61,980 bases of DNA from an uncultured Bacteroidia bacterium (GTDB lineage: Bacteria; Bacteroidota; Bacteroidia; Bacteroidales; F082). The stretch is from positions 1-61,980 of the forward strand of contig CACXQO010000002.1 in assembly GCA_902769815.1 (NCBI GenBank). The letters run 5' to 3'. The position numbers and the translations under genes are program-made. Of the stretch, positions 14,018-61,475 are shown piece after piece; within the stretch, counting starts at the first letter, position 1; every line of letters starts with the position of its first letter. The notes beneath the pieces were generated by a model. That model searched no databases, was not told the DNA's origin, and saw only the letters and a program-made list of their open reading frames with translations.

Positions 14018-14602
14018 ATAAGAAAAGTTCTATTTACCCTACTCGCGTTGATGCTGGTCGGTTTGGGCTATGCACAAAGCCCCAAAACACCGAAACACCC
14101 AAGCATCAATCAACTCCTAGATGAAAGCCGGTTCCCATGCCAGTTCAATGGCCAAGGCAGTTGGGACGATGAAGAGAACTGGGCAAACAGCACGCTCCCA
14201 AATGAAGGAGACACCGTCGTCATCGCCCCAAGCGCCAAATGTTGGATGGATCCTGCGGATAGCCAAGTCCATTACAAGGCGATTTACATCATTGACGACG
14301 ACAACATCGAAGAACCGCTGAACCGTTGCGGACAACTGTTTCTTCCTCAAGATGCAGAAGTGCAGGCTACCTTCATGAAGAAAATCAGAGGCTGGAAAGA
14401 ACCATTCGTAGACTATGGCCAAAATGGCAACTGGTACCTGGTCTCCTTCCCCACGAATGTGGATGATTTGGGCGACACCCTATACATTCCCGACTTTAGG
14501 GGTGCCGGCATGATTACCGGGGGCAACACCTACGACCTCTACTTCTTCAAGTCATGTCCAGGATTCAATGGCGACCCAGAATCTGACGAACCTTACATGG
14601 GC
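14018..14602 (+). pseudogene. 5' fragment of a T9SS-sorted surface-protein gene interrupted by the integrated element
   Basis: In-frame signal-peptide-like (I)RKVLFTLLALMLVGLGYAQ begins at ATA 14018 with no ATG (the track ORF starts at TTG 14048). The fragment ends ...NTYDLYFFKSCPGFNGDPESDEPYMG. The matching 3' part resumes at 60369 (MGEWRNY...). Confidence 0.6.
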
Positions 14603-14652
14603 TACCCTTCAAGGCCTTAACTTGTTGAAAATCAGGTTAAGGCCTTTTCAAT

Positions 14653-14688
14653 TGCCCGAAAACTGCCCGAACATCGTATTTGCCCGAA
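14653..14688 (+). repeat. Three direct TGCCCGAA motifs at the left end of the element
   Basis: TGCCCGAA at 14653-14660, 14664-14671 and 14681-14688. The same 8-mer occurs twice at the right end (60218-60246). Confidence 0.6.
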
Positions 14689-14750
14689 ACGAAAAACCGC
14701 CTGCCCTGTCCAACTGTCATTATACCACTATTCCACAAAGCAAGGCACTA

Positions 14751-15107
14751 CTATGCTCTCCTTATTCTGCGCATAGCATCCTCAAGTTTTATCTCTATTC
14801 TTGTAAGCTCTCCGAGCCTTTGTTTCATCTCCTGAACTACAGTTTCTGACAACTTACCATTTTTAATACAGATATTAGCGTAGTGAGCCAATTGATTTAT
14901 ATTATTACCTGTCTTCTGCATTTCATAGATTTGCTTTTTATACACTTGTAGAAACTCAACTGCATTGATGGTGGCTCTCTCGCCGCCAAACAACTTGGCA
15001 CGGATGTATTCAGAAACATTCATACCGGAACTGGCGACCATTTTTTCAAGTTGGTCGTATTCTTTCTGTGTCAATCGAATTTCTTTTCTTCTTACCTTAT
15101 TATTCAT
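14751..15107 (-). CDS. mobC: MobC-type (ribbon-helix-helix) mobilization accessory protein
   Basis: N-terminal RKEIRLTQKEYDQLEKMVASSGMNVSEYIRAKLFG and later NNINQLAHYAN, typical of the Bacteroidales MobA/MobC-like relaxosome protein. No relaxase gene follows. Confidence 0.7.
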   Translation of the reverse strand: MNNKVRRKEIRLTQKEYDQLEKMVASSGMNVSEYIRAKLFGGERATINAVEFLQVYKKQIYEMQKTGNNINQLAHYANICIKNGKLSETVVQEMKQRLGELTRIEIKLEDAMRRIRRA

Positions 15108-15184
15108 TTTTCCCTGATGTTTAAAAATCTAAGTTGCGAGGATTTTTACCTTCCCAAAACCTCATCGGATTTTTGGGCAAAATT

Positions 15185-15206
15185 TGTTTTTGTACGTACA
15201 AAAACA
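15185..15206. promoter_or_regulatory. Perfect 22-bp palindrome upstream of mobC (candidate oriT or operator)
   Basis: TGTTTTTGTACGTACAAAAACA, located 78-99 nt upstream of the mobC start. Confidence 0.4.
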
Positions 15207-15482
15207 CATCTTGCAATTAAAACCCCCACGTAAAAAAATGCACTCTCTACAATCTTCATTTTCGAAATAATATTACCTTGTTTTGTTATTCCAAATTCAA
15301 CATCTCCTTCCCTTCAAAATCCCAAAGGCCGAAACAGGGACCTCCACCCGTTAATGCCCATGTCGGGCGACCATAAAAAACCGCCTGCCAATGGATTGAC
15401 AGACGGCTTTCAATATTAGTTTTCCATTTTTCAAACTAAAGAAAGAACCTCTTACGCATAATAGTAGCTTTGTGAAATGGAA

Positions 15483-17030: not shown

Positions 17031-17074
17031 ATTTAGTAAACAAACAGGTTGATCAACAATACTTTGGCAGCTTT

Positions 17075-18559: not shown

Positions 18560-18589
18560 TTCAGCTATTCCCTAAATTAATAAAACGAG

Positions 18590-19602: not shown

Positions 19603-21480
19603 TTACTCCTCCATATTCCTAAGTTTCACAACAATTGGCATAGCGATACATGACTTATTGCAAATTCGTTGCTGCATCAGTTTGTCAAAAGCCATCTCGT
19701 TGGCATGTAAATAGTTTTTCTTATCCTTAAATTCGATGTCAATATACAATCCGCGTTCCAATCCTGTTTTACCCCCTATTCCCTCAACGTTTATCTTTAT
19801 CATAATGCGCTTAAACTCTTCCTTGCCAAATACATTCATAATCTCCTTACGCAAAAATGCGTCTATATCTTTCTTGGTATACAGTCTGTCATTAGTAAGA
19901 GCAAAATAACGCAGCAACTCAGAACGTTCATCGGGCGTAGCCTTATCACTTTTTTGGGTATATAATCTGTCATTAGTAAGGGTAGAATAACGCAGCAACT
20001 CAGAACGTTTATCGGGCGTAGCTTTATCGCTACCTCCTGAGGCAGGAACTAACACGCTCAATTTCTGTTCAATTGATGGCAACTTTTTATTTTCCATGAG
20101 TTCATCAACTTGTGGAGTGTTGCCGATTGCTCCTTGTGTGACAAGATAAGTCACTTTTGTTAATGTCGAAGATACACCATTTTTTATGTTCTTCATAACA
20201 TAAGTGCCACTATCGAACTTGAAAGTCTTATTCGGCACTTTAACTTCGCTGTTGTTGCCAATGCGATTGATGGTCTCACGCAAGCGTTTCAAGGTTTCAC
20301 CATCCTTAATGTCGTTATATTCAATAAAAGCGTAATAGTCATCAATAAAATGGTTGTATAGATTACGCACATCGCGGTATAAATCGCCATTATTGTAACG
20401 AGCAGCGTCAAAGTCGCGGACGATAATTTCGTCTGATGATGCGCCAAAACCTTGCTTTTGCGAGGCATTGCTGGTTTCAAGAATACGAAGAAAGAAGGAG
20501 TCGTCCTGTTTCTGTAGCTTGGCAATGGGCGACGATTGGCTAAGCGTGAGGGTACACACATCGACATTGACAACGGGAAAAGCATTAAGACAGATTGTAC
20601 AATTGTCCTGAACCGTGCAACCTTGCGGGAAATCAATTTTGAGCCATAATGTATTGGGCGAGAATCTATCCAACTCATTGTCTTCAAGCCACTGTCTGAA
20701 TTCACGAGGGTAAGCCTTGGGCTTGAAGATATCACGGTCTTTGGTCTTATCGGTGATGCATACCAATACTCCCTCCTTCATGTTGAGCAAACTGTCTTTC
20801 CAACTTTCGATAAAAGAGAAAAACTGCCCAGAGGCTTGCTGAGCATCAAATGGTTCTGCCATATTGATGTTTTCCATCTCGTTCATGGTGGCAAAATCAA
20901 GATTCCGATTGCCGATGCCTAAAGAAATGCGTTCTGGACTAATTCCTCTTGTTCCTTTAATGAACAGTGTCAATCCTTCAAGACACTTCACTTCTGTTTC
21001 TGTTGTAATGCCGACCCAAATGCGGTTAGGCTCACAGGCTAAAACAGACAACACCTCTGTGTCAAACTTCATCGTGGAGTGCGTCATCATAGACAAAGAC
21101 GAATGAGGCAAAGCCATGGTCTCAAACAAAGGAATGTAGTTAAGGGCTTGTTTGCGCAACGGGGTTTTGTAAGAAAAGCTGGAACCACTGCCTATTTTGA
21201 CAATTTCCGAGTTTTTGTTGGGCTTAAACGATGGCAAAAGCAGTGTTATCGCTGGAATAGGCTCCAATTGTTGCCATGGGATGAAATCGGTGCAATAGCG
21301 GTCTACAATCTGTCGGTCGATGCTGCCAATACGATCGTTTATTTTCTGTGTCTCGTTTAAAAGAGCTACCAGCATCATTTTTACGACTGGATCCATCTGT
21401 TGTAAGTCAATCTCTTCAACCGATAGCTGTTTCAATTGCTCAACAGCGTTTTTTAGCCTTTTTTCTAAATCAATATCCAT
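19603..21480 (-). CDS. tssF: T6SS baseplate protein TssF
   Basis: 625 aa. The N-terminal pattern DPVVKMMLVALLNETQKINDRIGSIDRQIVDRYCTDFIPWQQLEPIPAITLL fits the TssF N-terminus. Lies adjacent to tssE and tssK. Confidence 0.7.
   Translation of the reverse strand: MDIDLEKRLKNAVEQLKQLSVEEIDLQQMDPVVKMMLVALLNETQKINDRIGSIDRQIVDRYCTDFIPWQQLEPIPAITLLLPSFKPNKNSEIVKIGSGSSFSYKTPLRKQALNYIPLFETMALPHSSLSMMTHSTMKFDTEVLSVLACEPNRIWVGITTETEVKCLEGLTLFIKGTRGISPERISLGIGNRNLDFATMNEMENINMAEPFDAQQASGQFFSFIESWKDSLLNMKEGVLVCITDKTKDRDIFKPKAYPREFRQWLEDNELDRFSPNTLWLKIDFPQGCTVQDNCTICLNAFPVVNVDVCTLTLSQSSPIAKLQKQDDSFFLRILETSNASQKQGFGASSDEIIVRDFDAARYNNGDLYRDVRNLYNHFIDDYYAFIEYNDIKDGETLKRLRETINRIGNNSEVKVPNKTFKFDSGTYVMKNIKNGVSSTLTKVTYLVTQGAIGNTPQVDELMENKKLPSIEQKLSVLVPASGGSDKATPDKRSELLRYSTLTNDRLYTQKSDKATPDERSELLRYFALTNDRLYTKKDIDAFLRKEIMNVFGKEEFKRIMIKINVEGIGGKTGLERGLYIDIEFKDKKNYLHANEMAFDKLMQQRICNKSCIAMPIVVKLRNMEE
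19876..20037 (-). repeat. 81-bp in-frame tandem duplication (2 copies) inside tssF
   Basis: ggtatacagtctgtcattagtaag... (19876) matches ggtatataatctgtcattagtaag... (19957). Encodes SDKATPDKRSELLRYSTLTNDRLYTQK / SDKATPDERSELLRYFALTNDRLYTKK. Confidence 0.9.
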
Positions 21481-24149: not shown

Positions 24150-25373
24150 TCATAAGTACTGTTGGACATCGCCATCAAGTTCCACATAAAACTCACCTTG
24201 CTCTGTGCTGACATGTACCACATCAAATGGCGGTATACCAATTTGTTGCAATGAAAGTTCTTGATAAGGAAAGTACTCGTCTATATTTTCGAAAAACGAC
24301 TTGTGGAACAGTGTTCGATAGCTGAGTTTTCGCAGTTCAGCATCGGAGCTGATGAAAGCATCAAGTTTCGATTCAGGCAACATCACCTCGTATACCTTTT
24401 CAGGTCGGTCAGAGGTAATCTTGTCAACGAACTTGTTGTTACACATATTGATTTCGACCGATTTGACTTTAAGCAAGCATTTCAGTCCAGCAAGAACATC
24501 TTTTACTGACATAGTAGTTGACAGCTGTGGAGCGTTTATGACGGGTTCCCAACGCTCATGTGCAGGACAATTCTTCTTCCATGAAGCAAAACGAAAAATG
24601 TTGGTTGTGTTGGACATACCATCATAATGAAGCATCTTACCTTCAAGCGTTTGGAATTGCGTTTTTTCATCCACATGAATGACTTTCATGGCTTCTTGCA
24701 CCTGGATGGCTCCAATTATGGAAGAACTGATAGGTGTGGTAGCCACACGACCTGCCGAACTTTGACTGCGCATTACGTCAGCACAACCCGTGCGCAACAT
24801 GATTTGATTGAATTCCTCTCGCGAAAGGCCACATTCATAGCAACTGACACCTGGGGCATACACACGGGCTACACCCGTCAAGTTTTCAATACTGCCATCA
24901 ATCCAGGTCTTGCCTGCCCTCATGCACAAACGATTAAGTTGGTAACGTGCTATACGGCTATCAAGACAGCCTATGACCACATCAACTGAGCGATACAGGC
25001 CAAATCCCACCTCAGAGAAAAGATTGCCCACAATGGGTGTCACCTTGATTTGCGGGTTGATTTCCATTGCCCGCTTGGCAACGACGTCTGCTTTATAGGA
25101 ATGGTTGTACGCATCCTCTTCCCTGAACAGCACTGAGCGTGTGAGGTTTGAAATCTCTATTTGATCAAAATCAACCACAAAAATGTGTCCCACACCAAAT
25201 AAAGCCAAGTTTTTAACCACCTCGTTACCGAGTGCACCTGCACCAGCCACCAGAACCCGAGCGTTTTTCACTTTATCTTTCTTGAACCAAGAAAGCAGAG
25301 TAAATACACCCTCACCCCATTCGTATGCTCTTTGTTTTTCCATCAAGTTTTTTTCAAAATCAACATTCAACAT
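24150..25373 (-). CDS. E1-like ubiquitin-activating/adenylyltransferase (ThiF/MoeB/HesA family) with a C-terminal extension of about 170 aa
   Basis: VLVAGAGALGNEVVKNLALFGVGHIFVVDFDQIEISNLTRSVLF (Rossmann/ATP loop) and PGVSCYECG (Cys pair). Likely start at 25373 (MLNVDF) or 25343 (MEKQ). Confidence 0.85.
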   Translation of the reverse strand: MLNVDFEKNLMEKQRAYEWGEGVFTLLSWFKKDKVKNARVLVAGAGALGNEVVKNLALFGVGHIFVVDFDQIEISNLTRSVLFREEDAYNHSYKADVVAKRAMEINPQIKVTPIVGNLFSEVGFGLYRSVDVVIGCLDSRIARYQLNRLCMRAGKTWIDGSIENLTGVARVYAPGVSCYECGLSREEFNQIMLRTGCADVMRSQSSAGRVATTPISSSIIGAIQVQEAMKVIHVDEKTQFQTLEGKMLHYDGMSNTTNIFRFASWKKNCPAHERWEPVINAPQLSTTMSVKDVLAGLKCLLKVKSVEINMCNNKFVDKITSDRPEKVYEVMLPESKLDAFISSDAELRKLSYRTLFHKSFFENIDEYFPYQELSLQQIGIPPFDVVHVSTEQGEFYVELDGDVQQYL

Positions 25374-27777
25374 ATTGGAAAATAGTATCACCGATGGTAA
25401 TAGTATCGCCGTTGGAGAGCGGCACGGGCTTGTTGGTAGGCAATTCAGCGCGTGAATTGAATATGGTTTTCGTAGCCAATGGTTTAAGCATAGCTTGCGA
25501 TAAGGAGTGATCCACATAGAGCTGAGCTTGTTCTTTGGCCACCTTATTGCTCTTTTCCCATGTCATCTGAATCTCGCAACGTTCCGTCATGCCAATGGTG
25601 ACTATGTTGCCGCCCCCCGTAGCATTCATCCACTTGTGGATGGGAATGCGTTGTCCTTCTTTCACGCCGTTCTTGATGACCAGGAAGTATTTTTCAGCCA
25701 ACATTCTGACTGTGACCAAAGAGGCTCCCAAACCACCGCCATAAATGATGAAGTCAAGCAGCCTATTGAGCCACTCCCAACGTGGACTTGCTTTGCTTCG
25801 GCTTGATAGATAAAGAATGACGAATCCGATGACAGCCGACGCAATACCACCTAAGAGAGCACTTTTGACAGGGATACTCGACTTGATGGAAAGGCTAAGC
25901 GAAATGCAGATTGAGAACAGCATATAGGCGGGCAGTGAGCAGTACCACTGGATGGCATGTTCAGACACACTTGACTGCAACCAACAGAAGATGGCACCAC
26001 CCAATGCGAAGGAGGCCATACCGATGATTCCTGACAACAATGACAAGCCTAATACCTTCATTAACGATTTGCTGTCAGTTTTACGCACCCCATCGGTATA
26101 GCGGAACACTATCGACATGAAGAACCCAAGCAGCAAACCAATAGCGAAGAAGGAAGCCACCTTGGCCACGCAATCGTTGAAGATACTGTTTTGTGCTTCG
26201 CTAAGGCATTCATCAACAATGCCGCGTGCCAATCCCATAAAGACACGACCTCTACCGATAAGCTCATACACCAACCAGCTCACCAATCCAGCTACAATGC
26301 CTGCCATCGTTTGGTAACTGTCTCGCAACGTTCCTTTACTGAACAATTGTTTCCAATGTACATGATCCTGAAAACCGTCCTTGCAGTTTTGTCCGTATTC
26401 CGAGCAATGGTAGTTGTTTTGCTGCCAACACTCAACATGCATGATATGCTTGCACCGAGTCACTACCTTTTGTCCAGGAAGGATTTCCTTCCTACAGAAG
26501 TGGCAAACACGATGCGTCACGTTCTCTTCCTGCACATAGCGTTTGTAATACTTTGCCGAGAAAAGCAACGACTTAATCAAAGGGATAAGCCCTTTAATAA
26601 TGAACAAGTAACAAACGATGGTGAGAAGGGTAATCAGGAGTGCCATCAACAACTTTATCGTCCAATCAACAACATTGGGCTCGCGCTTGGGCCAAGGATC
26701 TTCCTCAGCTCCGATGGAATAAATACACTCTCCTTTGTATAAACCATCCCAAACGGCCTTATAGTTTACTCTGTTTCCCCTATAGCAGTTGTTTTCCGAA
26801 ACCCTATACGTGTAAGTGAAGTCCGCCATAGCGTTTCTGGCAGCCTGCTCCAAGCCCTCTTTCACATCTGCCATATCATTGGCAGGCAGATACTTACCTT
26901 TTCTTTCCATGATGACTGTTCCATCTTCGCGCCGAGGTTCGGTGATATTCTGTAATGTACGCGAGACCCTTTCATCTTCTCCATTACCCGTATGATAGAA
27001 GGCATACACCTGCGGAACCACTATGGAATCGTTATTCTGGTATTCGGTGACCTGAATAAAATTAATAACCTCCTCAACTTCAGGTTTCATGCTACCATCA
27101 GCGATGAGGAATAGCAAGTTCTTTCCGGGATGGTTGGCCGCTCGTACGGAAATAATTGTGTTTTGCTCGTACCCAGGCTCCTTATTGACATACTGGAGCA
27201 AATCCGAATTGGTATTGGTAAACTCAAACTCAGCCAGTTTTGCATACACGGCACCATAGAAATTCTTCGTCTGCGTACCTTGCTCAAATCGAGCGTCAAA
27301 GTCGGAGAAATTAGCCTTGGTGACCATCTCGCTCTTTGAAACCTGTTCACCATAGAATGAAAGGTAAACACAACTGTCGTGGGCACTTTCAACCAACTCG
27401 CCAATAACTTGACGTATCTGTCTCTTGCCGTCTTCGGGAATGTTGAGGTCAACCAATATGGAAATGGTATAGTCTGAAGGAATACGCTGGCCCGAAGTAA
27501 GCATTCGAATTGTTCGGCACTCGTTGGAAATCGTATCGCCGTCTTCAATGACAAGGAGATGCCGATTCATATCCTCCACGTCCAGTCCGAGCTCTTTTCT
27601 CTCGCCGTTGTCGATCTTCAGAAACAGGGTGAGGCTGTCATTCCCAATTCCATAGTCATATTGCTTATCAATGAATTGGATTCCATCCACAGTTTGGGCA
27701 CCAAGCGGCATTGCCCATACCATTAAAACCAAAAGTGCCAATAGTTTCGTGTAAGTTATCTTTTTCTTCTTGTCCAT
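25360..27777 (-). CDS. Polytopic membrane protein: signal peptide, periplasmic domain, TM, RING-H2-like zinc finger, six TM helices and a C-terminal FHA-like domain
   Basis: CHFCRKEILPGQKVVTRCKHIMHVECWQQNNYHCSEYGQNC = C-x2-C-x13-C-x-H-x2-H-x2-C-x7-C-x6-C. The C-terminal ...VTIGMTERCEIQM...LSNGDTITIGDTIFQYVEC has FHA topology. Confidence 0.7.
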   Translation of the reverse strand: MDKKKKITYTKLLALLVLMVWAMPLGAQTVDGIQFIDKQYDYGIGNDSLTLFLKIDNGERKELGLDVEDMNRHLLVIEDGDTISNECRTIRMLTSGQRIPSDYTISILVDLNIPEDGKRQIRQVIGELVESAHDSCVYLSFYGEQVSKSEMVTKANFSDFDARFEQGTQTKNFYGAVYAKLAEFEFTNTNSDLLQYVNKEPGYEQNTIISVRAANHPGKNLLFLIADGSMKPEVEEVINFIQVTEYQNNDSIVVPQVYAFYHTGNGEDERVSRTLQNITEPRREDGTVIMERKGKYLPANDMADVKEGLEQAARNAMADFTYTYRVSENNCYRGNRVNYKAVWDGLYKGECIYSIGAEEDPWPKREPNVVDWTIKLLMALLITLLTIVCYLFIIKGLIPLIKSLLFSAKYYKRYVQEENVTHRVCHFCRKEILPGQKVVTRCKHIMHVECWQQNNYHCSEYGQNCKDGFQDHVHWKQLFSKGTLRDSYQTMAGIVAGLVSWLVYELIGRGRVFMGLARGIVDECLSEAQNSIFNDCVAKVASFFAIGLLLGFFMSIVFRYTDGVRKTDSKSLMKVLGLSLLSGIIGMASFALGGAIFCWLQSSVSEHAIQWYCSLPAYMLFSICISLSLSIKSSIPVKSALLGGIASAVIGFVILYLSSRSKASPRWEWLNRLLDFIIYGGGLGASLVTVRMLAEKYFLVIKNGVKEGQRIPIHKWMNATGGGNIVTIGMTERCEIQMTWEKSNKVAKEQAQLYVDHSLSQAMLKPLATKTIFNSRAELPTNKPVPLSNGDTITIGDTIFQYVEC

Positions 27778-29381
27778 ATCTTCAAGTCTTCTAATTGTTG
27801 TTCACCATAATAGTTTTCGTCCGTGCAAAGGTTGCCATCAATGATGGGAATAGAGGTAAGAAGCCCATCGGAGGTGGAATAGACCAGCACGAACTTGATG
27901 TCGCCCAACTGTTGGGCAATGGCTTTCTTGACCGATGGAATGCTACAGTGCGTCACCATGACGAAAGCACCTATCGGATTGCAATCGACCACGTTCTCAT
28001 CATCGGTGACTTTGACAACGACATACTCCTTTACGTCTTTTCGTTCAATGGGATAGCCATAAACCGTTGAAACAAGTTCTCCGCTATGTTCGACAGCTAA
28101 CAGACCCATGTCGATGATAGCTCCATTGCTTAATTCAATACCATGGCAATTGTTACTACGCTGTTTTGCTCTTTCCAAACCGTTTCGATAATCCTCGGCG
28201 TTGAATGAATTGCGTTCCTGTTCCACCGCCCATTGATACCACTCTTCCAGCGAAAAGAGCTGTTTCATTTCAATGCGTGAGTTGATGGTACCGTCGTGTT
28301 TGAATGTAAACAATCCCATTTCTTGTTGGGGAGTAAGGATGTCGACCACAAGAGCCGTCAGGAAGTTAGGGTGCGATGGATGCTTCAGTAGGTTCTGCAC
28401 GCTACAGTCGTTGTTGCTGAAAAACACACCCAAGCCTGGATGCGAGTGTACCCAACAAGTCAAATCGTATTGTATATCAGTTTCCACTCGGAGTTTTTTC
28501 AGCTTCTCCCTTACATCCATCTTGATTTTTCCGCCAAAATTCAATTCATATTCCGTAAATACGGCATCGTTGCCCGGAAGCACAACGTGTTCCAAAGTGA
28601 CATAGTAATCGTTGGCTTTCTTGTCTTGAACCCAGCGACCCAACACCATGCAGCCGTCTTCCTTAGGATTTTCAGGATTACGGAGGTCATTAGCATACAT
28701 ATTATATATTTCTTTGATGCATGCTGTCTTGATGTAAACTTGTTTCACCGCCGAGTCATCGACAAAGCTATTACAGTCAATCTCCATATAATTGTCATTG
28801 CCAATTACATCGTCAATGTTTTGTTTACGCTGTATAGCAGTAGTCTTGTGGCGAATAACGATATTAGAATCATCAATATCTGTTTCTTTCCCTATTGTCT
28901 GTACCAGAGTTGGCTTTACTCTTTTCTTGCGTTTGCCGATGAAGACGAGGATAATGATAATAACTAACAAACCGACAACGCCAAGTCCTGCCAGCAAAAG
29001 AAGTCGTTTTATTTCCGCCTCATGCTTTCTTTGTTCTATCTCATTTCTGACCATAGTCTTCATCTCTATGCAGCAAAGCTCATTAGTTAGCCAATTATCT
29101 CCCTCCTTTACTATCTTGATTTCATCGCAGGAAGGGAAAATTTGCAAGAGAAAATTTACCACAAATGTATCTAGCTTTTTTTCTTTATCGGTATCAGATA
29201 GTGTATCGATATCAGGCAGTTGACCCACTGTGTCTAGGTATTTTTCAAAATTGGCGATGATAATTTCCTTATTCACCGATCCGTCTTCGTTTTTCTGTAG
29301 GTCAATTTGAGCCCATACACCACCCCAAAAGCCAAGGAATGTCAATAGGGCTATAATGGTTTTAATATGCTTTTTCATCAT
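27756..29381 (-). CDS. Membrane-anchored JAB/MPN (JAMM) metallopeptidase
   Basis: Signal peptide MMKKHIKTIIALLTFLGFWGGVWAQ. TM helix LLLLAGLGVVGLLVIIIILVFIG followed by KRKKR. JAMM motif WVHSHPGLGVFFSNNDCS (HxH-x7-S-xx-D). Confidence 0.8.
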   Translation of the reverse strand: MMKKHIKTIIALLTFLGFWGGVWAQIDLQKNEDGSVNKEIIIANFEKYLDTVGQLPDIDTLSDTDKEKKLDTFVVNFLLQIFPSCDEIKIVKEGDNWLTNELCCIEMKTMVRNEIEQRKHEAEIKRLLLLAGLGVVGLLVIIIILVFIGKRKKRVKPTLVQTIGKETDIDDSNIVIRHKTTAIQRKQNIDDVIGNDNYMEIDCNSFVDDSAVKQVYIKTACIKEIYNMYANDLRNPENPKEDGCMVLGRWVQDKKANDYYVTLEHVVLPGNDAVFTEYELNFGGKIKMDVREKLKKLRVETDIQYDLTCWVHSHPGLGVFFSNNDCSVQNLLKHPSHPNFLTALVVDILTPQQEMGLFTFKHDGTINSRIEMKQLFSLEEWYQWAVEQERNSFNAEDYRNGLERAKQRSNNCHGIELSNGAIIDMGLLAVEHSGELVSTVYGYPIERKDVKEYVVVKVTDDENVVDCNPIGAFVMVTHCSIPSVKKAIAQQLGDIKFVLVYSTSDGLLTSIPIIDGNLCTDENYYGEQQLEDLKIWTRRKR

Positions 29382-29384
29382 CTG

Positions 29385-30569
29385 TCAAATTGAGATTCTT
29401 TTATTACCTTTTTCTTTCATGGTCTTATCAACACTTTTCTGTAGGGCATTCTTGCCTTTTTGCTCCACGGAATTCATGGTTTGGTTGGTTTTGCTTTTAA
29501 TGGCTGACTGCGCTTTTCTTTTGGCTATACCTTCTGCTTGTTTTGCAGCATCTTGCTGCATCTGCATCATGCTGCGCTGGGTACGGCGGTTGCGTATGGT
29601 CTGCATCACTTGGCCACCCACAAAGAGTAACACCGCCAACAAAGCACCACCGATAAGCATCCACATGTTACGTTTCTTCTGTTCTTCTTCCTTAGCCTTG
29701 ACAGCCTGAGCCTCACGCTCCTGTTCCTTCTTTATCGAATCCTGAATGGCCTGTTGTTGCTGTTGAATCTTTTTATCGTATTCAGCTTTCATCGCCTTTT
29801 CTTTGACATCATATTGGGCGAGAATGTCATCTATCATCTTAACGATGTTGTCGTCCTTTACTTCGCTTCGCTGTTTTCTCAGTGCCCTCACCTCCTCTGT
29901 CAGATACTCCTCAAAAGGATATTCCTTCTGGCGTGACAACAACTCAACAATGTTATTGGCACGCTTGATGGCAATGGCATCAGTTTCCGAAAGGCTCTCG
30001 ACTTCTTCTTCAATAATCTCCACTGATGTTTGGGTTACAGTAGGCTGAACAGCCGTCGTCTTTGTTGCAGGAATTGGGTCTATCTTAACTTTCAACTCAC
30101 CACAACTGGCAAAAACCTTATAATGCAATTTCCTTTCATAGTGTGCCAAAAAAACGGGTATGGACAATATAGTACTCTCGTCATCTATCAGCTCAAACGA
30201 GATGGATGGCTGCTGCTGCACAAGATAATAGCCGTAGCTAGTTGACTTTCTCCGAAGGCTGGCTGGCACGGTGAAAGCCTTGATATCATCACCCTTAAAC
30301 ACGGTACCGTCGCTATAGACACCAATATGATCAAAAAACACCACGGCCACCTCTTCCAATTTGTTGTATTTGCGGGCATAAGTCGGTCCCAAGATCTTGC
30401 TTGCGCTACTAAAGTTAAGCACAGCTACACCGTCCTCTATGTTCACATCGTATGTGATGGTAACACGGTCGCCAGAAGGAGATTCAAGCGTTTCGGTGAC
30501 CTTGTTGGCCATTAATGTGCTGCATAGCATTAGTGCTATCCACAAACAAATGAATTTACCACTTTTCAT
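29385..30569 (-). CDS. Exported protein with a coiled-coil and a C-terminal TM anchor. Function unknown (membrane-complex candidate).
   Basis: Signal peptide MKSGKFICLWIALMLCSTLMA. Lys/Glu/Gln-rich coiled coil. TM helix MWMLIGGALLAVLLFVGGQVM followed by a basic tail. 4-nt overlap with the upstream gene. Confidence 0.6.
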   Translation of the reverse strand: MKSGKFICLWIALMLCSTLMANKVTETLESPSGDRVTITYDVNIEDGVAVLNFSSASKILGPTYARKYNKLEEVAVVFFDHIGVYSDGTVFKGDDIKAFTVPASLRRKSTSYGYYLVQQQPSISFELIDDESTILSIPVFLAHYERKLHYKVFASCGELKVKIDPIPATKTTAVQPTVTQTSVEIIEEEVESLSETDAIAIKRANNIVELLSRQKEYPFEEYLTEEVRALRKQRSEVKDDNIVKMIDDILAQYDVKEKAMKAEYDKKIQQQQQAIQDSIKKEQEREAQAVKAKEEEQKKRNMWMLIGGALLAVLLFVGGQVMQTIRNRRTQRSMMQMQQDAAKQAEGIAKRKAQSAIKSKTNQTMNSVEQKGKNALQKSVDKTMKEKGNKRISI

Positions 30570-32289: not shown

Positions 32290-32309
32290 AGCTGATATTA
32301 TTATGGGAT

Positions 32310-45672: not shown

Positions 45673-46304
45673 GCAGGTACAAAAGCTATGGCAACAGCTG
45701 CCACACCGTCTAATTGAACCACCACCTTTTTGTTCTTGTTGATTCTTTTTATTACCCCTTCCACTCCAGAAAAGAAGCCATCGACAACCTTCACCCGCTG
45801 GCCGACTTTTTTGATAAACTCGTTGTTATCGAGGAATATCACACGATCGTCTTGCACGGATGCCACCCGCATAAAGTTGTTCATCTGTACATCGGGAACC
45901 TGAAGAATCTCGCTCTTAGCATCAGTAGAAAGAGAGCGTTTCATTATGTAGCGCATCGGGGCAAAATCGCCACGACACATCTTCAGGTTTGTTAGATATT
46001 CTTGAGTGGACCTGACGAAAACCAAATTATGAATAGCAGGTAAGAGCACACGCTTTTTACCGCCCGATTTTGTTTCCACCAGTTCATAGTGCATGGGGAG
46101 AAAACACTCTACACCCAACTCATCAAGCAAAGCCTTGATTTTCATTTCCCGATTATAAGTGACACGCATTGGAAACCAATGCAACACAGAATCCTCTTCA
46201 ATTGATTGGTTTGCAGTATGTTGATGCGATTTTGCAATAGAGAGGGACATCACCGTTTTTGACGTGATTCCAATAATATTTTCTTTGCTTAATAATCTGT
46301 TCAT
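45648..46304 (-). CDS. UpxY-family (NusG-like) transcription antiterminator
   Basis: WFPMRVTYNREMKIKALLDELGVECFLPMH...LLPAIHNLVFVRS (NGN domain) and C-terminal KOW-like VKVVDGFFSGVEGVIKRINKNKKVVVQL. Confidence 0.8.
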   Translation of the reverse strand: MNRLLSKENIIGITSKTVMSLSIAKSHQHTANQSIEEDSVLHWFPMRVTYNREMKIKALLDELGVECFLPMHYELVETKSGGKKRVLLPAIHNLVFVRSTQEYLTNLKMCRGDFAPMRYIMKRSLSTDAKSEILQVPDVQMNNFMRVASVQDDRVIFLDNNEFIKKVGQRVKVVDGFFSGVEGVIKRINKNKKVVVQLDGVAAVAIAFVPACQLSLIQ

Positions 46305-52014: not shown

Positions 52015-52636
52015 TTATAAAAGTTTCAAACAATTTGCTGGAACAAAGGCAATGGCCACAGCTGCAACGCCTTCACTTTGTACCACTACACGCTTGTTTT
52101 TGTTGATTCGCTTAATGGTGCCCTCAATTCCTTCAAAAAACGTCAATGATTCTAGCAGGTCTGCCAATGTTGTTTCGAAATTAGTTGTAATCCAAAAACA
52201 TGACGCTGTCGTCTTATATGGATGCCTCACGCATGAAATTATTCATTTGCCCATCAGAAACGTGAATGATTTCCTTCTTTTCGTTAGGAGAAGCAGTCCA
52301 TTTCATGATATATCTCACGGGTGTAAAAGTCTATCTCGTCATCTTCAGCTGGGTCAAACACTCTTGTGTCGATCTAACGAAAATCAGATTATGAATGGCA
52401 GGCAGCAGCATACGCTTCCTCCCTCCATTTTTCGTTTCCACCACTTCCCAATGCATTGGCATAAAACTCTCAACACCCATCTCGTCAAGCAAAGCTTTGA
52501 TTTTCATTTCCCTATGATAAGTGATACGCATAGGAAACCAATGCACCAAGGCTTCTTTTCTAATTACTTGATTTACAGTGTCTTGTCTGGGGGGGGGGGG
52601 GGGGGGGGGGAAAAAATTGCGTGGTTTCATTTGCAT
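52015..52636 (-). pseudogene. Decayed UpxY/NusG-like antiterminator gene (paralogue of 45648-46304)
   Basis: VHWFPMRITYHREMKIKALLDEMGVESFMPMH...LLPAIHNLIFVRS, then an in-frame TAG (52331-52333), two in-frame TAA codons and one frameshift before ...EGIEGTIKRINKNKRVVVQ. The conserved 5' leader catattgcgctgatttccagctaca matches 46303-46326. Confidence 0.8.
52589..52610. repeat. Homopolymer: 22 consecutive G (C22 on the coding strand of the decayed NusG-like gene)
   Basis: Counted directly, and consistent with F + 7 x Pro in the ORF translation. Confidence 0.95.
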
Positions 52637-54842: not shown

Positions 54843-54843
54843 A

Positions 54844-57081
54844 TCACTTTTCGGAATTTTCATTTTCCCTCTCCTCTATCTGTTTCTTCAAGTCATTGTA
54901 ATCCTCTTCATTGAGCCAGTTTTTCGCATGGAAGATATAGATTCTCGACTTGCCCTGTTGCGTTTCCTTACCGTCAAAATACACAAAAGTGGTATTCTCA
55001 CCCTTGGCCAAAACACCTTTTTTAACCGACTCGTTCAAGTATCTTCTAATCTCGTACTTGTCGGCATCCCTTGTCTGTTTTTTCGTAAGCTCAAACAGCA
55101 CTTCCACCGACAGTCTGACTACGATTTGATTCAATGTGAAGAATTGCGTTAGCAGTACGTCTTTCACATTCTTAATCAGCGGGGGCTCGCTGGCCTCAAT
55201 CACCGCGTTCAATGCCGGTGTCTGGAAAAGGTTGTCATCAAAATAGAGACGGCCAGACTTGGGATAGTGGAGTTCGCGGTTCTTCAGGTAATGGAGAAAA
55301 GCGGGGATCTCATCCTTCATCTTCTCCTCTATCTCGGTATCTTCTGCGCCTTCAAACGGAGAGACCTTAATCACCCAAAAACGGGTATCGGCTGAGGTAA
55401 GCGGCGCAAATCCAGTCTCGTTGTTCGTGCAGAGGACAAACTTGGCGAAGCACTTCCCTCTTCTCGCGTCTTTTCCTTTAGGCTCGTAGGGCAACTCATC
55501 AGAAGTGGTGGCCATCTTCATAAAGTCGACGGAGTTCAAGTCAATGGCTGTAGCTTCGTCAACAAGCACCAGCTCTTTTCCTTCCAGCATGGCATTGAAC
55601 TTGTTGTTCAGCCTTACAGTATCCATGCAAACCGAATTTTCTTGGAACAAAAAATTCAGGAAATGCAACAGGGTGGATTTCCCCGTCTTTTGTTCCCAAC
55701 TCACCAAACAGAGAATCGGTAACCTTTGTTTTGGATGGGCGAACAGTAATTGGAAGTAATCCAACGCCATCTCATAGAGCAATTCCCCGTCATTGTTTGG
55801 ATAATCAAAAATGTGGTGAAGCACCTTATTGATATTGTCCCAACTGCCTTCTTTAGGAATGTGCGTGAGTTTGGCAAACCTGTTGTAAAGCACAGACCGG
55901 ATACCTGATTTTTCGTATTGAGGTGCAGGATTGTATTTTTCAGGATCGTTTTCAGGTTCGTATGCGAAGCCGTCATATTTCGGAATCTGTCGAATGAACT
56001 CCTGTGGCTGGGGATAATCCGCTTTGATTCTGAAATAGGTTGTTTTTTCCAGAACCAAATTGTTCAGGTCGTCCACGGTTTGCTTATACAAGTCTGGACC
56101 CACCATCGCATATCGAAACAAATCATCGGCGAAGGTAGGTTTAATCTTGCCCATGTCGTCCCGGTAGTATCGCGTATGGTTGTATGTCCATTCACGGTCA
56201 CCGATGTCGTCCTGGTAACGCTCATAAAACGACCTGAAACTATCAAGGCCAAAATACTTCCTTATCTGGTTCGTTCCGGCAATCTTTTCAACCGCAATGT
56301 AAGTGCCTTGTGCATTTTTCTTAACTGCCTGCAACTCAGCGAGGCATTTCTGTTGGTCGCATTGCCCGTTGAAAAGCAAGTCGTCAATGCCTTTGCCTCC
56401 CACATCGCGCAGAATATGCTCGTAAAAAACATCGCCTTGGAACACTTTCGATTCCCTAAGATAGTCGTAGAACTTAATCAGCGATTCGGAGAATTGTCTC
56501 GGGCGTTCCGTGGCTTCTTTTGCCTCGTCAAAGTTTTTCAGTTGGAGTGCATCGGCATCATGCAAGACAACGATTTCCCTTGGGCTGGTCTTTTCGATGA
56601 AATCCGCCAAGTCTGTATGCAGCTTCAGCTTGTCTTTGGCGGTGAAATTGTATATACCGCCGATTCCAATGGCACAAAGCCCGAATTTCGACAACACAAA
56701 CGCCTTTATTTCACCTTCCACGATGAACAACGTGTTGACCTTCTCCTTAGACTTGTATGCTTCAATCGCCTTGGGCGTGAAAAAGGGGAATGTTTCGGTT
56801 CCTTTAGGCTGCTTGTACTTTTGTTTTGGGTCTTTGGGATTCTTCAGCCTGGTTCTGACAAAAGCCCGGATACTGCGGCCTTCGTTTTTGGATCTGTCTT
56901 CGTATTCAAGAATGCGCCCATTAGGAGTAAGGTAATTGATAACAAGATTGTCGTTGTCGTCAGAGGTGAAGTAACGGAACTCTTTGATACCGAGGACGCC
57001 CTCAGCGTCTGTCACGCCTTTGAAACGGTTCTCTTCGTCAGTAATTCCAACGGCAGAAAGCCTTCGTTCACAATAACACAT
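54844..57081 (-). CDS. Primase-helicase: Toprim domain plus a C-terminal P-loop (P4/D5-type SF3 helicase-like)
   Basis: LFIVEGEIKAFVLSKFGLCAIGIGGIYNF...VVLHDAD (Toprim) and WEQKTGKSTLLHFLNFLF (Walker A). 745 aa. Typical of Bacteroidales mobilizable elements. Confidence 0.75.
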   Translation of the reverse strand: MCYCERRLSAVGITDEENRFKGVTDAEGVLGIKEFRYFTSDDNDNLVINYLTPNGRILEYEDRSKNEGRSIRAFVRTRLKNPKDPKQKYKQPKGTETFPFFTPKAIEAYKSKEKVNTLFIVEGEIKAFVLSKFGLCAIGIGGIYNFTAKDKLKLHTDLADFIEKTSPREIVVLHDADALQLKNFDEAKEATERPRQFSESLIKFYDYLRESKVFQGDVFYEHILRDVGGKGIDDLLFNGQCDQQKCLAELQAVKKNAQGTYIAVEKIAGTNQIRKYFGLDSFRSFYERYQDDIGDREWTYNHTRYYRDDMGKIKPTFADDLFRYAMVGPDLYKQTVDDLNNLVLEKTTYFRIKADYPQPQEFIRQIPKYDGFAYEPENDPEKYNPAPQYEKSGIRSVLYNRFAKLTHIPKEGSWDNINKVLHHIFDYPNNDGELLYEMALDYFQLLFAHPKQRLPILCLVSWEQKTGKSTLLHFLNFLFQENSVCMDTVRLNNKFNAMLEGKELVLVDEATAIDLNSVDFMKMATTSDELPYEPKGKDARRGKCFAKFVLCTNNETGFAPLTSADTRFWVIKVSPFEGAEDTEIEEKMKDEIPAFLHYLKNRELHYPKSGRLYFDDNLFQTPALNAVIEASEPPLIKNVKDVLLTQFFTLNQIVVRLSVEVLFELTKKQTRDADKYEIRRYLNESVKKGVLAKGENTTFVYFDGKETQQGKSRIYIFHAKNWLNEEDYNDLKKQIEERENENSEK

Positions 57082-57140
57082 CTCAACTTAATACTTCTTC
57101 CATAATACAATAATGAATTTAATTATGGCGGCAAAGCTAT

Positions 57141-58099: not shown

Positions 58100-58225
58100 T
58101 TTACTTCGTGTTTTATAGTTGTTTTATTCTTCAATCATTCTAATTGCACAACAGATTCCTTCTTTACATCGTCATCAAAATCATGATAACTGCAATCGGT
58201 TCGGATATTGCTTTTGCTTTTGTGG

Positions 58226-58504
58226 TCATGCCATTTCCTCCAATACCTTATTAACATCGCTTTCTTTATAGCGGACTTTGTTGCCCACTTTCACCCTTTT
58301 AAGAACCCCTTCTTTGTTCCACCTCCAAAGGGTCGGCTCTGTCACTCCTAACAGTTCCGCCACTTGTTTAATGGTCAAAAGCTTTTCTTCTTTGGGTTTG
58401 GTGTACTCCGTAATCAGATCAAGCATTTTTTCGATTCTCTCGAATTGTTCCGGGGTCATCTGAATTGAAATAACCGCCTGTTGGGTTGTTGGTTGTTTAA
58501 ACAT
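58226..58504 (-). CDS. Excisionase-like helix-turn-helix (MerR-superfamily) DNA-binding protein
   Basis: LTIKQVAELLGVTEPTLWRWNKEGVLKRVKVGNKVRYKESDV. Likely start MFKQPT at 58504. Confidence 0.7.
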   Translation of the reverse strand: MFKQPTTQQAVISIQMTPEQFERIEKMLDLITEYTKPKEEKLLTIKQVAELLGVTEPTLWRWNKEGVLKRVKVGNKVRYKESDVNKVLEEMA

Positions 58505-58569
58505 GTCTTTGTCGTTTTTAATGAAATATGATGCAAAAGTAATACAATGAAATATTGCATTATAAATAA

Positions 58570-58625
58570 TCAACCTATTCAACATTTTTTCAACATTTTT
58601 TCAACTTATTGTTTAAAATTTCAAC
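58570..58625. promoter_or_regulatory. Five TCAAC repeats, three of them phased at 11 bp, upstream of the HTH gene
   Basis: TCAAC at 58570, 58579, 58590, 58601 and 58621 (ttcaacatttt ttcaacatttt ttcaactt). Confidence 0.4.
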
Positions 58626-58657
58626 AAAAAGAAACACGGCTTTTTATACCGTGTTTC
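58625..58657 (-). terminator. Intrinsic terminator downstream of the integrase gene
   Basis: On the minus strand: gaaacacgg-tataaaaag-ccgtgtttc followed by TTTTTGTTG. Confidence 0.55.
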
Positions 58658-58699
58658 CCATTCCCTATTACGAATAATCCAACCGCCGTTCAATGATTC

Positions 58700-60196
58700 T
58701 TACCTCGTCGGCCAATTCTGTATCTTGGTTGATGGCTTCATTTTTCTCATAATGCTTCCATCAATTACATTCAACGATTTATCCACTTTGTATTCAGGTT
58801 GCCCAAAGGCGAAACACATCAATTTGAATTTGTCGGACAATTCAAGTCTGGTGTACCTATTCACGGCATCAGACCCAATTCGATGAAGTCCAGCCGCATA
58901 GAGATTGACTTGCGCCTTATTCATAATATCAACATGGGTTTTCCTGCAAAGTTTACTACTGGCCAACTCATATAAAGGTTTATACTCGTTATCTTCTATT
59001 TCTTCGTTGTAGACATTGCATTTCCTATCAATCCTGCACTTCTGCAACAATTGTCTGATTTTGGCATTGTACCCCCATTCCCCGCTCACATAATGGAGAA
59101 TGTGGAAATTGAACTTGTATTTTTTCACAATATCCAAAGCGTAACGAATTATCGGGGTTTCGATTTCGGAATTGTCGCGCTGCTCTTTTTTCGTCTTATT
59201 CGGCAAATAATGTATGTATGGAATGCCGTTTTTATCCACGCCGACATTGGCCATCGTTAGTTTCTGAAAGTCGGCCACACGGCAACCAAAAGCGCATTGG
59301 AGCAAAAAAGCGTCCTTTGTTTCCCTATGGCTTTCGGGAACATCGGTATTCATCACGGTCATGAACTCCTCGAAATGGAGAAAAACTGGTTCGTCGTAGC
59401 GTTCTTTTGTTGCCATCTTTACACGGTCTTTGCCCAACTTGCGGAATGGCGACTTTGCGATTTCGTCATCATCTTCCAAAGCACTGAAAAACGCCTTTAA
59501 TTGCTTCACGCGGGTTGCAGCCGTGTTTTGGTTTCTTGGTTCGTTTGGAATGTGTCTTGAGGGTTCGTTTGCGTATAACTTTGGCCATTTCTTCACATAC
59601 TTGTATTCATCAACGATGAATTGGCGGTATTCCATTACGTCATTTGGGGTGAAGTCCGAGGGAGTCATGGCGGTTCTACCTTTCACGGTCAAGAATCGTT
59701 CTACCTCTTTGGCGACAAGTTTATAAAGTGAGTATCGGCTTTCACCCCAAACGCCTTGTTTATATGAATCCTCAATGAATGCATTGAGGCGTTCCGACAA
59801 AGTGACGGTTTTGCTTGGCTCGGATTGTTCGGGGTGAAGCTCCCTAAACACCATTTCGTAAAACACTTTGCTTGTCATGTCGTAACCGCCTTGTTTCATT
59901 GCTGAATAGGCTCTTTTCATCGCGTCAATTTCATTGGCAATCTGTTTAACCAAAACAGGGTCGTAAATCTTCGTTCCCGCTTTCAGTGTACCATCATTGT
60001 TGAACTTTGCCAAATCCTTCAAGTCGGCTACAATTTCACTCCTATAAGAGAAATCGGCTTTCTTGCTGTCATAGAATCTGAATCTTAATCTTACATTGCC
60101 ACTCGTTTTCTTTGTGTGTTTAGTGGACTTTTTTGTTTTGCCATCGTTTTCATCGTCTTTGAAAGTCCCGATGGTCAGAATTGTAATGCGTTCCAT
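58700..60196 (-). CDS. int: Tyrosine site-specific integrase (Bacteroidales arm-binding-domain type)
   Basis: Start MERITILT at 60196. N-terminal arm-type domain, SAM-like core-binding domain, and catalytic region with ...FGCRVADFQKL..., ...KLCRKTHVDIM... and ...AGLHRIGSDAVNRYTRL (R...H..R...Y pattern). Confidence 0.85.
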   Translation of the reverse strand: MERITILTIGTFKDDENDGKTKKSTKHTKKTSGNVRLRFRFYDSKKADFSYRSEIVADLKDLAKFNNDGTLKAGTKIYDPVLVKQIANEIDAMKRAYSAMKQGGYDMTSKVFYEMVFRELHPEQSEPSKTVTLSERLNAFIEDSYKQGVWGESRYSLYKLVAKEVERFLTVKGRTAMTPSDFTPNDVMEYRQFIVDEYKYVKKWPKLYANEPSRHIPNEPRNQNTAATRVKQLKAFFSALEDDDEIAKSPFRKLGKDRVKMATKERYDEPVFLHFEEFMTVMNTDVPESHRETKDAFLLQCAFGCRVADFQKLTMANVGVDKNGIPYIHYLPNKTKKEQRDNSEIETPIIRYALDIVKKYKFNFHILHYVSGEWGYNAKIRQLLQKCRIDRKCNVYNEEIEDNEYKPLYELASSKLCRKTHVDIMNKAQVNLYAAGLHRIGSDAVNRYTRLELSDKFKLMCFAFGQPEYKVDKSLNVIDGSIMRKMKPSTKIQNWPTR

Positions 60197-60217
60197 AATG
60201 AAAATGTGTGTGTTAGT

Positions 60218-60246
60218 TTCGGGCAAAAATAGTAAAAATGCCCGAA
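60218..60246. repeat. Inverted pair of the TGCCCGAA motif at the right end of the element
   Basis: TTCGGGCA at 60218-60225 and TGCCCGAA at 60239-60246, just upstream of the integrase start. Confidence 0.6.
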
Positions 60247-60326
60247 AGAAATGCAATATAGCATAATAATCTTATTATCCGATTTAAGAATTTATATGAT
60301 ATATAATTGAATATCAATAATATTAA

Positions 60327-61475
60327 ATGATAGAATTATTTCAGCGAAATAAGATTTACGATTCCGCTATGGGCGAATGGAGAAACTATAGGTACTATTT
60401 GGCTAATGAATTGCAGTATTTCAGGGCTGATTTTAACGGTTATTTGTATGCCAACTATAATGACACCGACTTGCATTTCACCGGTGATTTGTTCGCTCAA
60501 CCTTCAATGGAATACCAACTTTCTGCTGAATCCACATCCCTTGCCGGGGATGAGTAACCGGATCAAAATGGTGTACACCTGGTGGGTAATCCTTATCCTT
60601 CCAATGCCAGAATAGATTTTTCAACAGAAGACATCATTAAGAATGGTTTATATATGATGAATCCGGTAGATGCCGCAAGAAACGATGTGGTGTGCTACGA
60701 CACGTATGAATACGAACAAGAGGAAGACGTCGCCATCGTCATTGCTCCGGCGACTGCTGTGTTTTTTAAAGCCGAAGAGAGAGATGAAGCCTTTTTTACC
60801 ACCGTCACTTTTACTCCTTACGATGGAGACTTAACACCGAATGATGATTATATCAGAGGCGGGGAAAGGAATCTGAATAGGATTGTCATTGAATTATGTG
60901 AAGATGGCGTGATGAGAGACAGGGCGTATGTGAGGCCTGACGAAGGCAAGAATTGCACCAAGTTCAGCATCAACAAAAACACCCCCAAGATCTTCATTCC
61001 CAAGAACAACAAGGATTATGCTATTGCCAGTACTGAGGGCGCCAAGGTGATGCCCCTGTGCTTCACCACCAAAGAAAGCGGCATCTACACGCTGAACTTC
61101 AACACGAAGAAGATGAACTACAGCTACCTGCACCTCATCGACAACGCGACGGGCATGGACATCGACATGCTTCAGACCCCGAGCTACACCTTCGACTCGA
61201 AGGACTGCGGCTATGCCACCCGCTTCAAGCTCGTGTTCGTTGAAGATGCCACCAATGAAATCGCCGAGAGCTTCGCTTACGTCAGCAACGGCCAGCTTAT
61301 GATCAACAACAACGGCAATGCCACCCTGCAAGTGATGGACATCACCGGCCGCATCCTGAGCACCGACGACATCCAAAACAGCTACAGCAAGAGCCTCAAC
61401 CTGAGCGCTGGTGTGTATGTGGTTCGCCTCAGCAACGGCAACGACGTGAAAACCCAAAAGATTGTGGTTGAATAA
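60327..61475 (+). pseudogene. 3' part of the interrupted T9SS-sorted surface-protein gene. It also carries an in-frame TAA.
   Basis: ...MGEWRNYRYY...FNGYLYANYNDTDLHFTG...LAGDE-TAA(60555-60557)-PDQNGVHLVGNPYPSNARIDF, all in one frame (60327 and 60582 share a phase). C-terminal T9SS domain NGNATLQVMDITGRIL...GVYVVRLSNGNDVKTQKIVVE. Confidence 0.7.

Follow-up and report, generated by a model that had tools for sequence, protein, structure and literature searches.

Insertion of a mobile element at secondary att sites is known from phage lambda. NBU1 and NBU2 of Bacteroides are elements of approximately 10-12 kb that encode a relaxase, possess a defined oriT, target tRNA gene 3' ends and have no conjugation apparatus of their own. 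Among tRNA-targeting elements, secondary-site insertions have been described for ICEBs1 of Bacillus subtilis (PMC3715440) and SGI1 (PMC2297512), and ICEBs1 excision at such sites is impaired (PMC3715440). The GA2 type VI secretion system (T6SS) integrative and conjugative elements (ICEs) of gut Bacteroidales use a tyrosine integrase to insert at the 3' end of a tRNA gene, duplicate approximately 19-22 bp and form tandem arrays, and the integrases of the GA1 T6SS ICE/CTnBST family are selective for tTnCcAA, insert throughout genomes with a 7-bp repeat and interrupt genes (PMC8102008). The locus considered here lies in a 61,980-nt stretch of DNA (referred to as the window) from an uncultured Bacteroidia bacterium of lineage F082 (contig CACXQO010000002.1, assembly GCA_902769815.1), where a 45.8-kb island splits a gene for a surface protein sorted by the type IX secretion system (T9SS). 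The island is very probably a tRNA-Glu-specific element that was integrated by a divergent tyrosine integrase at a secondary site inside the gene.

The proposed event resembles the insertions of ICEBs1, SGI1 and lambda in that it involves a site-specific tyrosine integrase with a tRNA 3' end copied in its attP, a pseudo-attB that has only a short stretch in common with the primary site, an interrupted host gene and an expected impairment of excision. It is unlike them in its primary site, tRNA-Glu(CTC) of rumen Bacteroidales, in an integrase that has no match to a Pfam catalytic domain, and in that the insertion recurs across many metagenome samples and is known from sequence alone rather than from a laboratory isolate. 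With the GA2 ICEs the island shares a Bacteroidales T6SS cluster on a tyrosine-integrase element, a tRNA 3'-end target with a duplication of approximately 19-22 bp, and tandem arrays at the tRNA. However, it is 45.8 kb in length, targets tRNA-Glu(CTC) and sits at a site that is not a tRNA gene, and no relaxase or type IV secretion system (T4SS) genes were detected in Pfam and NCBIfam scans of nearly all open reading frames (ORFs) of at least 100 aa between 14603 and 60368. Like the GA1 elements, it is a T6SS element that interrupts a host gene and is flanked by a short direct repeat, but the short repeat is here the exception in a tRNA-specific family, as 29 of 29 host junctions in a scan of metagenome contigs are at tRNA-Glu. 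It is also similar to NBU1 and NBU2 in combining an integrase and mobilisation-accessory functions with a tRNA 3'-end target and no conjugation apparatus of its own, although the scans turned up no more than a NikA/MobC-like accessory protein, and a full T6SS forms the cargo. An event of this type is well documented and ordinary, and current understanding is not overturned. What is new is the tRNA target, the divergent and unannotated integrase clade, the compact island without conjugation genes and the atypical insertion site, and the locus offers a clean example of a tRNA-specific island inactivating an unrelated gene.

The hexamer ATGGGC is present at 14597-14602 and again at 60369-60374, and 14602 joins to 60375 in frame, as an initial annotation of this DNA had pointed out. 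The repeat is exactly 6 bp long: the bases that precede the two copies differ (C versus T), as do those that follow (T versus G). With one copy of the core, the element comprises 45,772 bp (14603-60374), which bears out the element of 45.8 kb proposed earlier to split a T9SS-sorted gene, and its GC content is 0.422 versus 0.496 in the left flank. The hexamer by itself is uninformative; it occurs 30 times in the window, counting both strands. However, the island lies between two copies of the tRNA-derived hexamer, and its boundaries are set to the base by comparisons with host and element relatives. The alignment with a host ortholog and the ends of related elements each fix these boundaries at the hexamer; in this fixed register, the two copies would be identical by chance with a probability of about 1/4096.

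The 5' fragment of the interrupted gene (14018-14602, + strand) encodes a signal-peptide-like start, IRKVLFTLLALMLVGLGYAQ, and runs through ...DEPYMG, colinear with its homologs; its start codon is ATA where the ortholog has ATG at the matching position. Past 14602 the left reading frame continues as YPSRP*, and the stop codon of the truncated host ORF (TAA, 14618-14620) lies inside an element hairpin. The 3' fragment (60375-61475, + strand) begins EWRNYRYY... and contains an in-frame TAA at 60555-60557; read from 60369, its frame gives MGEWRNYRYY... and extends to a T9SS C-terminal domain (CTD) that ends at 61475. PF18962 (Por_Secre_tail) matches the called right-fragment product and the homologs, and together with a signal-peptide-like N-terminus (MRKVLFTLLALMLVGLGYAQ in the ortholog) this identifies the protein as T9SS cargo with a type A CTD. 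A search with the joined protein returned 336 relatives, many of which are single ORFs of 610-631 aa with PF18962, approximately 50% identity and 93-99% coverage. Eleven aligned homologs are gapless through the junction (...G-EWRNY...), and the first residues of the right fragment, E196-W-R-N-Y200, are invariant. Judged by these alignments, the left and right fragments are halves of one gene, as had been suggested earlier, and the objection that they might be separate genes is answered by homologs that are single colinear ORFs.

The closest relative of the joined protein, P0024, is 69% identical by BLASTP (73% in the alignment), and its gene is uninterrupted and stands in the same order as in the window, behind genes for a UvrD-type helicase and a DUF6722 protein. 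For comparison at the DNA level, a joined model was made of 13001-14602 and 60375-61980, with the junction at joined position 1602. Three of the four P0024 loci match this model without a break at the junction: L012 over positions 1-2397 (84.4% nucleotide identity), L014 over 1-2571 (82.8%) and L015 over 1-2702 (81.9%). The uninterrupted allele that the initial annotation had advised seeking in relatives thus exists at the same locus in a related lineage. At the junction the ortholog reads GCTTAC GAGGAC GAATGGAG and the joined model CCTTAC ATGGGC GAATGGAG. Homology to the ortholog stops at 14596/14602 and resumes at 60369/60375; it breaks and restarts exactly at the hexamer, and no host sequence was lost or gained.

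The gene carries further lesions. The ATA at 14018 represents loss of the start codon, as the 70 bp around it are matched in full by the syntenic ortholog apart from an ATG at this position, and the in-frame TAA in the right fragment is real; both had been noticed earlier. Both lesions are present in every element-bearing contig compared. The ortholog (L012-L015) is itself a pseudogene, interrupted by an in-frame TAA that follows ...DVVC and frameshifted ahead of the CTD. A third allele (L020-L022), with flanks 92-97% identical, is without window positions 13916-61181, including approximately 1.5 kb of the gene, and retains a CTD remnant that is 76% identical. This is the only empty site with a junction elsewhere, and it is a gene deletion in a diverged haplotype rather than an excision product. 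The locus is evidently dispensable and decays repeatedly among relatives. The right fragment is now without promoter and signal peptide, and the left fragment ends MGYPSRP* and is followed by the element-borne hairpin. The interrupted gene may have decayed since the insertion (ATG to ATA, TAA) or may already have been decaying before it.

The insertion is not confined to one assembly. The 97-aa protein of the right flank is identical in 18 contigs and the 92-aa protein of the left flank in 19 (37 contigs in total). Of the flank contigs compared, some have the element at this site with 100% identity, others belong with the deletion allele, and the rest are not long enough to decide. Long contigs that derive from different samples and assemblers (L001, L002, L004, L016-L019) cross both junctions at 100% identity.

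The origin of the core is apparent from related elements. A search for the integrase among species-representative genomes gave six loci. Four of these encode an integrase that is 95-100% identical, and their DNA ceases to match the window exactly at 60374; all six (the other two integrases are 70% identical) read (A/G)ATTCCGCT ATGGGC TAC at the equivalent of this position. In these loci the core is followed, after a short spacer, by a hairpin and then by a T-run with short direct repeats, which is the architecture of 14597-14690 in the window. A scan of metagenome contigs with a pattern consisting of ATGGGCTAC and the conserved hairpin features gave 76 matches in 75 contigs; 39 had no hairpin context and appeared random, and 37 had the core with the hairpin. 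Among the latter, 29 are tRNA junctions with ...GGTTCGA(A/T)TCCGCT directly upstream, 8 have the right (P) arm of another element upstream, and none has other host DNA upstream. ARAGORN found tRNA-Glu(CTC) in all 12 loci scanned of the 29, usually with tRNA-Arg(ACG) ahead of it. The cloverleaf has ATGGGCT as the acceptor stem's 3' strand, paired with GGCCCAT of the 5' end, and the hexamer corresponds to nt 66-71. ARAGORN found no tRNA or tmRNA in the window, and the core and hairpin pattern had no match in viral_contigs.

The element therefore carries a copy of a tRNA 3' end. The right end (60359-60374, + strand) reads CGATTCCGCT followed by ATGGGC and corresponds to the T-loop, T-stem and acceptor strand of tRNA-Glu(CTC), its last 6 bp being the right core (attR). 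An attP reconstructed from 60331-60374 and 14603 onward shares 19 bp with tRNA-Glu(CTC), CGATTCCGCTATGGGCTAC, from the T-loop to past the discriminator, and an 18-19-bp block is conserved in L026-L031, L095 and L101. In L058 and L063, tRNA-Glu(CTC) is fused at ATGGGCTAC to sequence that is 98% identical to 14597-14705, including the hairpin and three TGCCCGAA repeats; no full element together with its integrase was seen on one contig. L107 (1137-7574, reverse strand) contains a different element of 6.4 kb in the order tRNA-Glu, core, element, P arm, core and native hairpin, bounded by an 18-bp repeat. The canonical tRNA-Glu site of the island is suggested by the attP sequence and the shared left arm. 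Integrases at 54-56% identity are associated with other tRNA-3'-end-like sequences and a hairpin at the same position, and distant integrases (P0148, P0145) have tRNA-3'-end-like sequences at the end of the P arm; look-ups of these two aimed at a whole small element found no tRNA within 10 kb. Targeting of tRNA 3' ends thus looks like a habit of the integrase clade. The hexamer, put forward earlier as a candidate crossover point with the caveat that so short a match is expected by chance, is the conserved crossover core of this element family, which settles the caveat in its favour.

The tRNA-Glu(CTC) 3' end, downstream of tRNA-Arg(ACG), is occupied by at least five P-arm types and by tandem arrays in metagenome loci L043-L111, and it is an integration hot spot for several element types in rumen Bacteroidales. 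Three other readings of these sequences were considered and rejected. The left arm does not act by completing a protein-coding target that ends MGY...* with a new 3' end, as the upstream sequence is tRNA-Glu. A conserved small ORF across attP is not maintained, since its frame is not kept in L030 and L031. The 85 bp of left-arm-like DNA past the core in L026-L031 is not a native repeated intergenic element; it is better read as the displaced region downstream of the tRNA, or else as left-arm DNA of a tandem element resident there, because mobile-element and defence genes occur in the L030 and L031 flanks and L107 has the full tRNA-element-core layout.

The left core (14597-14602, + strand), the crossover region of attL, corresponds to nt 66-71 of tRNA-Glu(CTC). 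The left (P') arm that follows it (14603-14705, + strand) consists of TAC, from the discriminator region of the tRNA, a hairpin at 14611-14646 with a T-run behind it, and TGCCCGAA three times in direct orientation at 14653-14688. The hairpin has a 14-bp stem and folds at -29.2 kcal/mol (z = -5.8). It was missed by the terminator scan because the T-run after it is one T below the scan threshold, and it does not represent a described RNA family, since an Rfam search of 13700-15200 at E <= 10 gave noise only. The TGCCCGAA motif has 7 matches in the window versus 2 expected, and 5 of these are at the element ends, three direct in the left arm and two, one inverted and one direct, in the right (P) arm at 60218-60246. 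The repeats on both arms are candidate arm-type integrase sites. Just inside attL, beyond the TGCCCGAA repeats, there is a deletion polymorphism: at 14705/14706 the window is without 100 bp of left arm that are present in all other copies (L016, L034, L058 and others), and L018 is without 33 bp at the same spot. The exact 25-mer of the right end had no match in metagenome_contigs, a collection that apparently does not include the Joint Genome Institute (JGI) sample carrying the window sequence, and L101 differs (C/T) within this 25-mer.

The sole recombinase of the island is encoded at 58700-60196 (- strand; 498 aa from the ATG at 60196). Standard profiles scarcely recognise it: PF13102 (SAM_5/SAM-like) scores 22.2 bits versus a cut-off of 22.3, XerD gives E = 6e-4, PF00589 had no match in the Pfam and NCBIfam scans, and phmmer and profile searches against PDB sequences gave no meaningful match. 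It has 864 homologs, almost all of them unnamed. The residues R306, K334, K415, R418, H438 and Y448 are invariant across 23 homologs (48-88% identity) and have the spacing of a tyrosine recombinase; K415 occupies the usual His-II position (KxxR versus HxxR), with catalytic roles assigned by pattern and spacing. In a Foldseek search of the PDB with an AlphaFold2 model (mean pLDDT 80.8), the top 40 and more hits were all tyrosine recombinases (Tn1549 Int, Cre, lambda Int, XerH, Flp) with probabilities of 0.95-1.0; the global TM scores of only 0.2-0.35 are expected for flexible two-domain proteins. The conserved residues and the predicted two-domain fold argue that the protein is a tyrosine recombinase, although it lacks a sequence-profile match. 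Its clade is divergent and uncharacterised and is overlooked by standard profile annotation. Next to it is a gene for a 119-aa HTH_17/excisionase-family protein (58226-58585, - strand; PF12728 7e-14; TIGR01764 1.9e-11, above cut-off), a candidate Xis.

The normal target of the island would be the 3' end of a tRNA-Glu(CTC) gene, where the 19-bp copy in attP and the copied tRNA terminator hairpin would rebuild the tRNA at attL. In the lineage of the window, the integrase would have recombined attP with a pseudo-attB in the surface-protein gene, ...GAACCTTAC ATGGGC GAATGG.... The pseudo-attB shares only ATGGGC with the 19-bp primary core; among the 10 bases on its left there are 4 matches, about as many as chance would give. 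Identity confined to the crossover region and junctions that fall at the canonical core are what marks a secondary site, and both are seen here. Provided that strand swapping depends on homology, a match over ATGGGC alone would confine both exchange points to the hexamer or its edges, with one copy left at each junction. The secondary-site insertion would in this way map the crossover region, which canonical sites cannot do because 19 bp are shared there. The site probably read ATGGGC already before the insertion, and the element hairpin and T-run now follow the truncated left ORF. Since attL and attR each keep one cognate core half-site, excision is expected to be inefficient, and by analogy with ICEBs1 (PMC3715440) it is probably poor, with the island effectively trapped. 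The earlier proposal that excision restores the gene holds for the reading frame only; the ATA start and the in-frame TAA would remain, so function would not return.

Other origins of the junctions were considered. A short direct repeat that exactly flanks an insert is what a transposase-type staggered cut would leave, and the GA1 T6SS ICEs of Bacteroides use minimal 7-bp sites and interrupt genes (PMC8102008), so the hexamer might be a target-site duplication made by a transposon without sequence specificity. This is very improbable: the same hexamer, within an 18-19-bp block identical to tRNA-Glu, ends all related elements, the host junctions in the scan were at tRNA-Glu in 29 of 29 cases, the only recombinase has a tyrosine-recombinase fold, and there is neither a transposase in the Pfam scans of the element proteins nor inverted-repeat similarity between the ends by eye (no repeat search was run). 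Integrase-independent illegitimate or homologous recombination, with a coincidental 6-bp match, is improbable as well, if slightly less so. The hexamer is common, with 30 copies in 62 kb on both strands, and a shared 6-mer is expected by chance between two loose junction zones of 100 bp; however, the host/element boundaries coincide to the base with those of the conserved core on both sides, host sequence is neither lost nor gained, and the element has a complete att arm at either end. Breaks close to the junctions are found in several metagenome contigs (L003, L007-L010, L036-L040), as might be seen with an assembly chimera, but the contigs of different samples and assemblers that span both junctions at 100% identity leave this explanation with hardly any probability, and the same applies to two separate neighbouring genes in view of the single, colinear homologs and ortholog.

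A different question is whether the element came into a gene that had by then become a pseudogene, which would make the insertion neutral rather than the inactivating event. The locus has decayed independently in relatives (the TAA and frameshift of the ortholog and the loss of approximately 1.5 kb in L020-L022) and the window copy has two extra lesions, but both are common to all element-bearing contigs and the order of events is therefore unreadable. Prior decay is a serious possibility, though it seems somewhat less likely than an intact gene. It concerns the history of the locus and not the mechanism, and it is compatible with secondary-site integration by the tRNA-Glu-specific integrase.

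Several observations weigh against secondary-site integration as described above. The pre-insertion allele of this lineage was not found, and the nearest ortholog reads GAGGAC where ATGGGC would be expected. In none of the contigs compared is an element of this integrase clade complete, from tRNA-Glu at one end to the integrase at the other. The overlap could extend past the hexamer on one side if the integrase tolerates heterology in the overlap as does IntDOT (PMC2817482); left of the hexamer attL has host sequence and right of it element sequence, in attR the two are exchanged, and this arrangement is compatible with an extended overlap. Contigs with a precise empty site or with the circular junction of an excised element are also missing, which carries little weight because the searches were not capable of detecting them: the flanks were looked up by exact-protein searches only, and the protein search did not return even the window's own fragments.

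Taken as a whole, the integrase may belong to a large, uncharacterised clade of tyrosine recombinases from rumen and gut Bacteroidales, without a PF00589 match and with Lys in place of His-II, in which each member copies a different tRNA 3' end with its terminator hairpin; the present insertion would narrow strand exchange to six bases of the acceptor stem, and a compact T6SS island without conjugation genes would have become fixed in one lineage through being trapped where it cannot excise. This combined picture is put forward tentatively, as one that falls a little short of an even chance. The 19-bp block and the TAC-hairpin signature may be used for delimiting such islands in metagenome-assembled genomes.

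The cargo of the island is a T6SS cluster with associated genes (15483-51729, - strand), identified by the Pfam and NCBIfam scans. It encodes a ClpV-like ATPase, TssC, Hcp paralogs, VgrG, a DUF4280 (PAAR-like) protein and a Tle1-like effector, with weak matches to TssK-like and TssE(gp25)-like proteins. Also present are a WG-repeat protein, a Ser/Thr kinase, a glucosaminidase-LysM protein, a ThiF E1, a UQ_con E2 and a T9SS-CTD protein, and the island carries a Schlafen/AlbA_2 protein. A complete T6SS cluster on an island of approximately 46 kb without conjugation genes stands in contrast to the large GA1 and GA2 ICEs of human-gut Bacteroides. A DUF3854-DUF5906 primase-like protein (54844-57081, - strand), part of an element maintenance module, adjoins related integrases in L027-L029 and L116. 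At the left end, 14751-15107 (- strand) encodes a ribbon-helix-helix protein similar to the NikA/MobC relaxosome accessory proteins (PF21983 1.7e-13; PF05713 1.9e-10); it has NCBIfam MbpA/MobA-like matches below cut-off and no relaxase gene next to it. The scans found no relaxase, coupling protein or T4SS (tra) genes such as an ICE would carry. Of the features of an integrative and mobilisable element, the integrase, Xis-like and NikA/MobC-like proteins are present, with no relaxase in the scans and no oriT identified. No internal att-like site hints at a composite of two elements.

Several genes of the island deserve mention. The T6SS cluster includes a ubiquitin-like conjugation set (24150-32636, - strand) composed of the ThiF E1 (24150-25517), a membrane protein of 805 aa (25360-27777) that matches RING and FHA weakly, a protein of 541 aa with a JAMM-like motif, HSHP...S..D (27756-29381), the UQ_con E2 (31624-32379) and a 108-aa possible ubiquitin-like protein (32310-32636), all on the - strand. 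Positions 38659-40896 (- strand) encode an fn3-repeat protein of 745 aa that carries a T9SS C-terminal sorting domain, so the island brought in one T9SS cargo gene and interrupted another. A 625-aa TssF-like ORF contains an 81-bp (27-aa) tandem duplication at 19870-20031 that is 88% identical (SDKATPD(K/E)RSELLRY...). A truncated UpxY/NusG-like ORF (52331-52636), 69% identical to the N-terminal half of a full-length paralog (45648-46304), has a run of 22 C residues at its 5' end (approximately 52589-52610, - strand); either a tract prone to slippage or an artefact of assembly may account for the run. Just 3' of the split gene, 61521-61814 (+ strand) encodes a 97-aa secreted protein with a weak PID-CTERM-like sorting-signal match (E = 0.009, below cut-off), a C-terminal hydrophobic segment and the sequence RRKKED.

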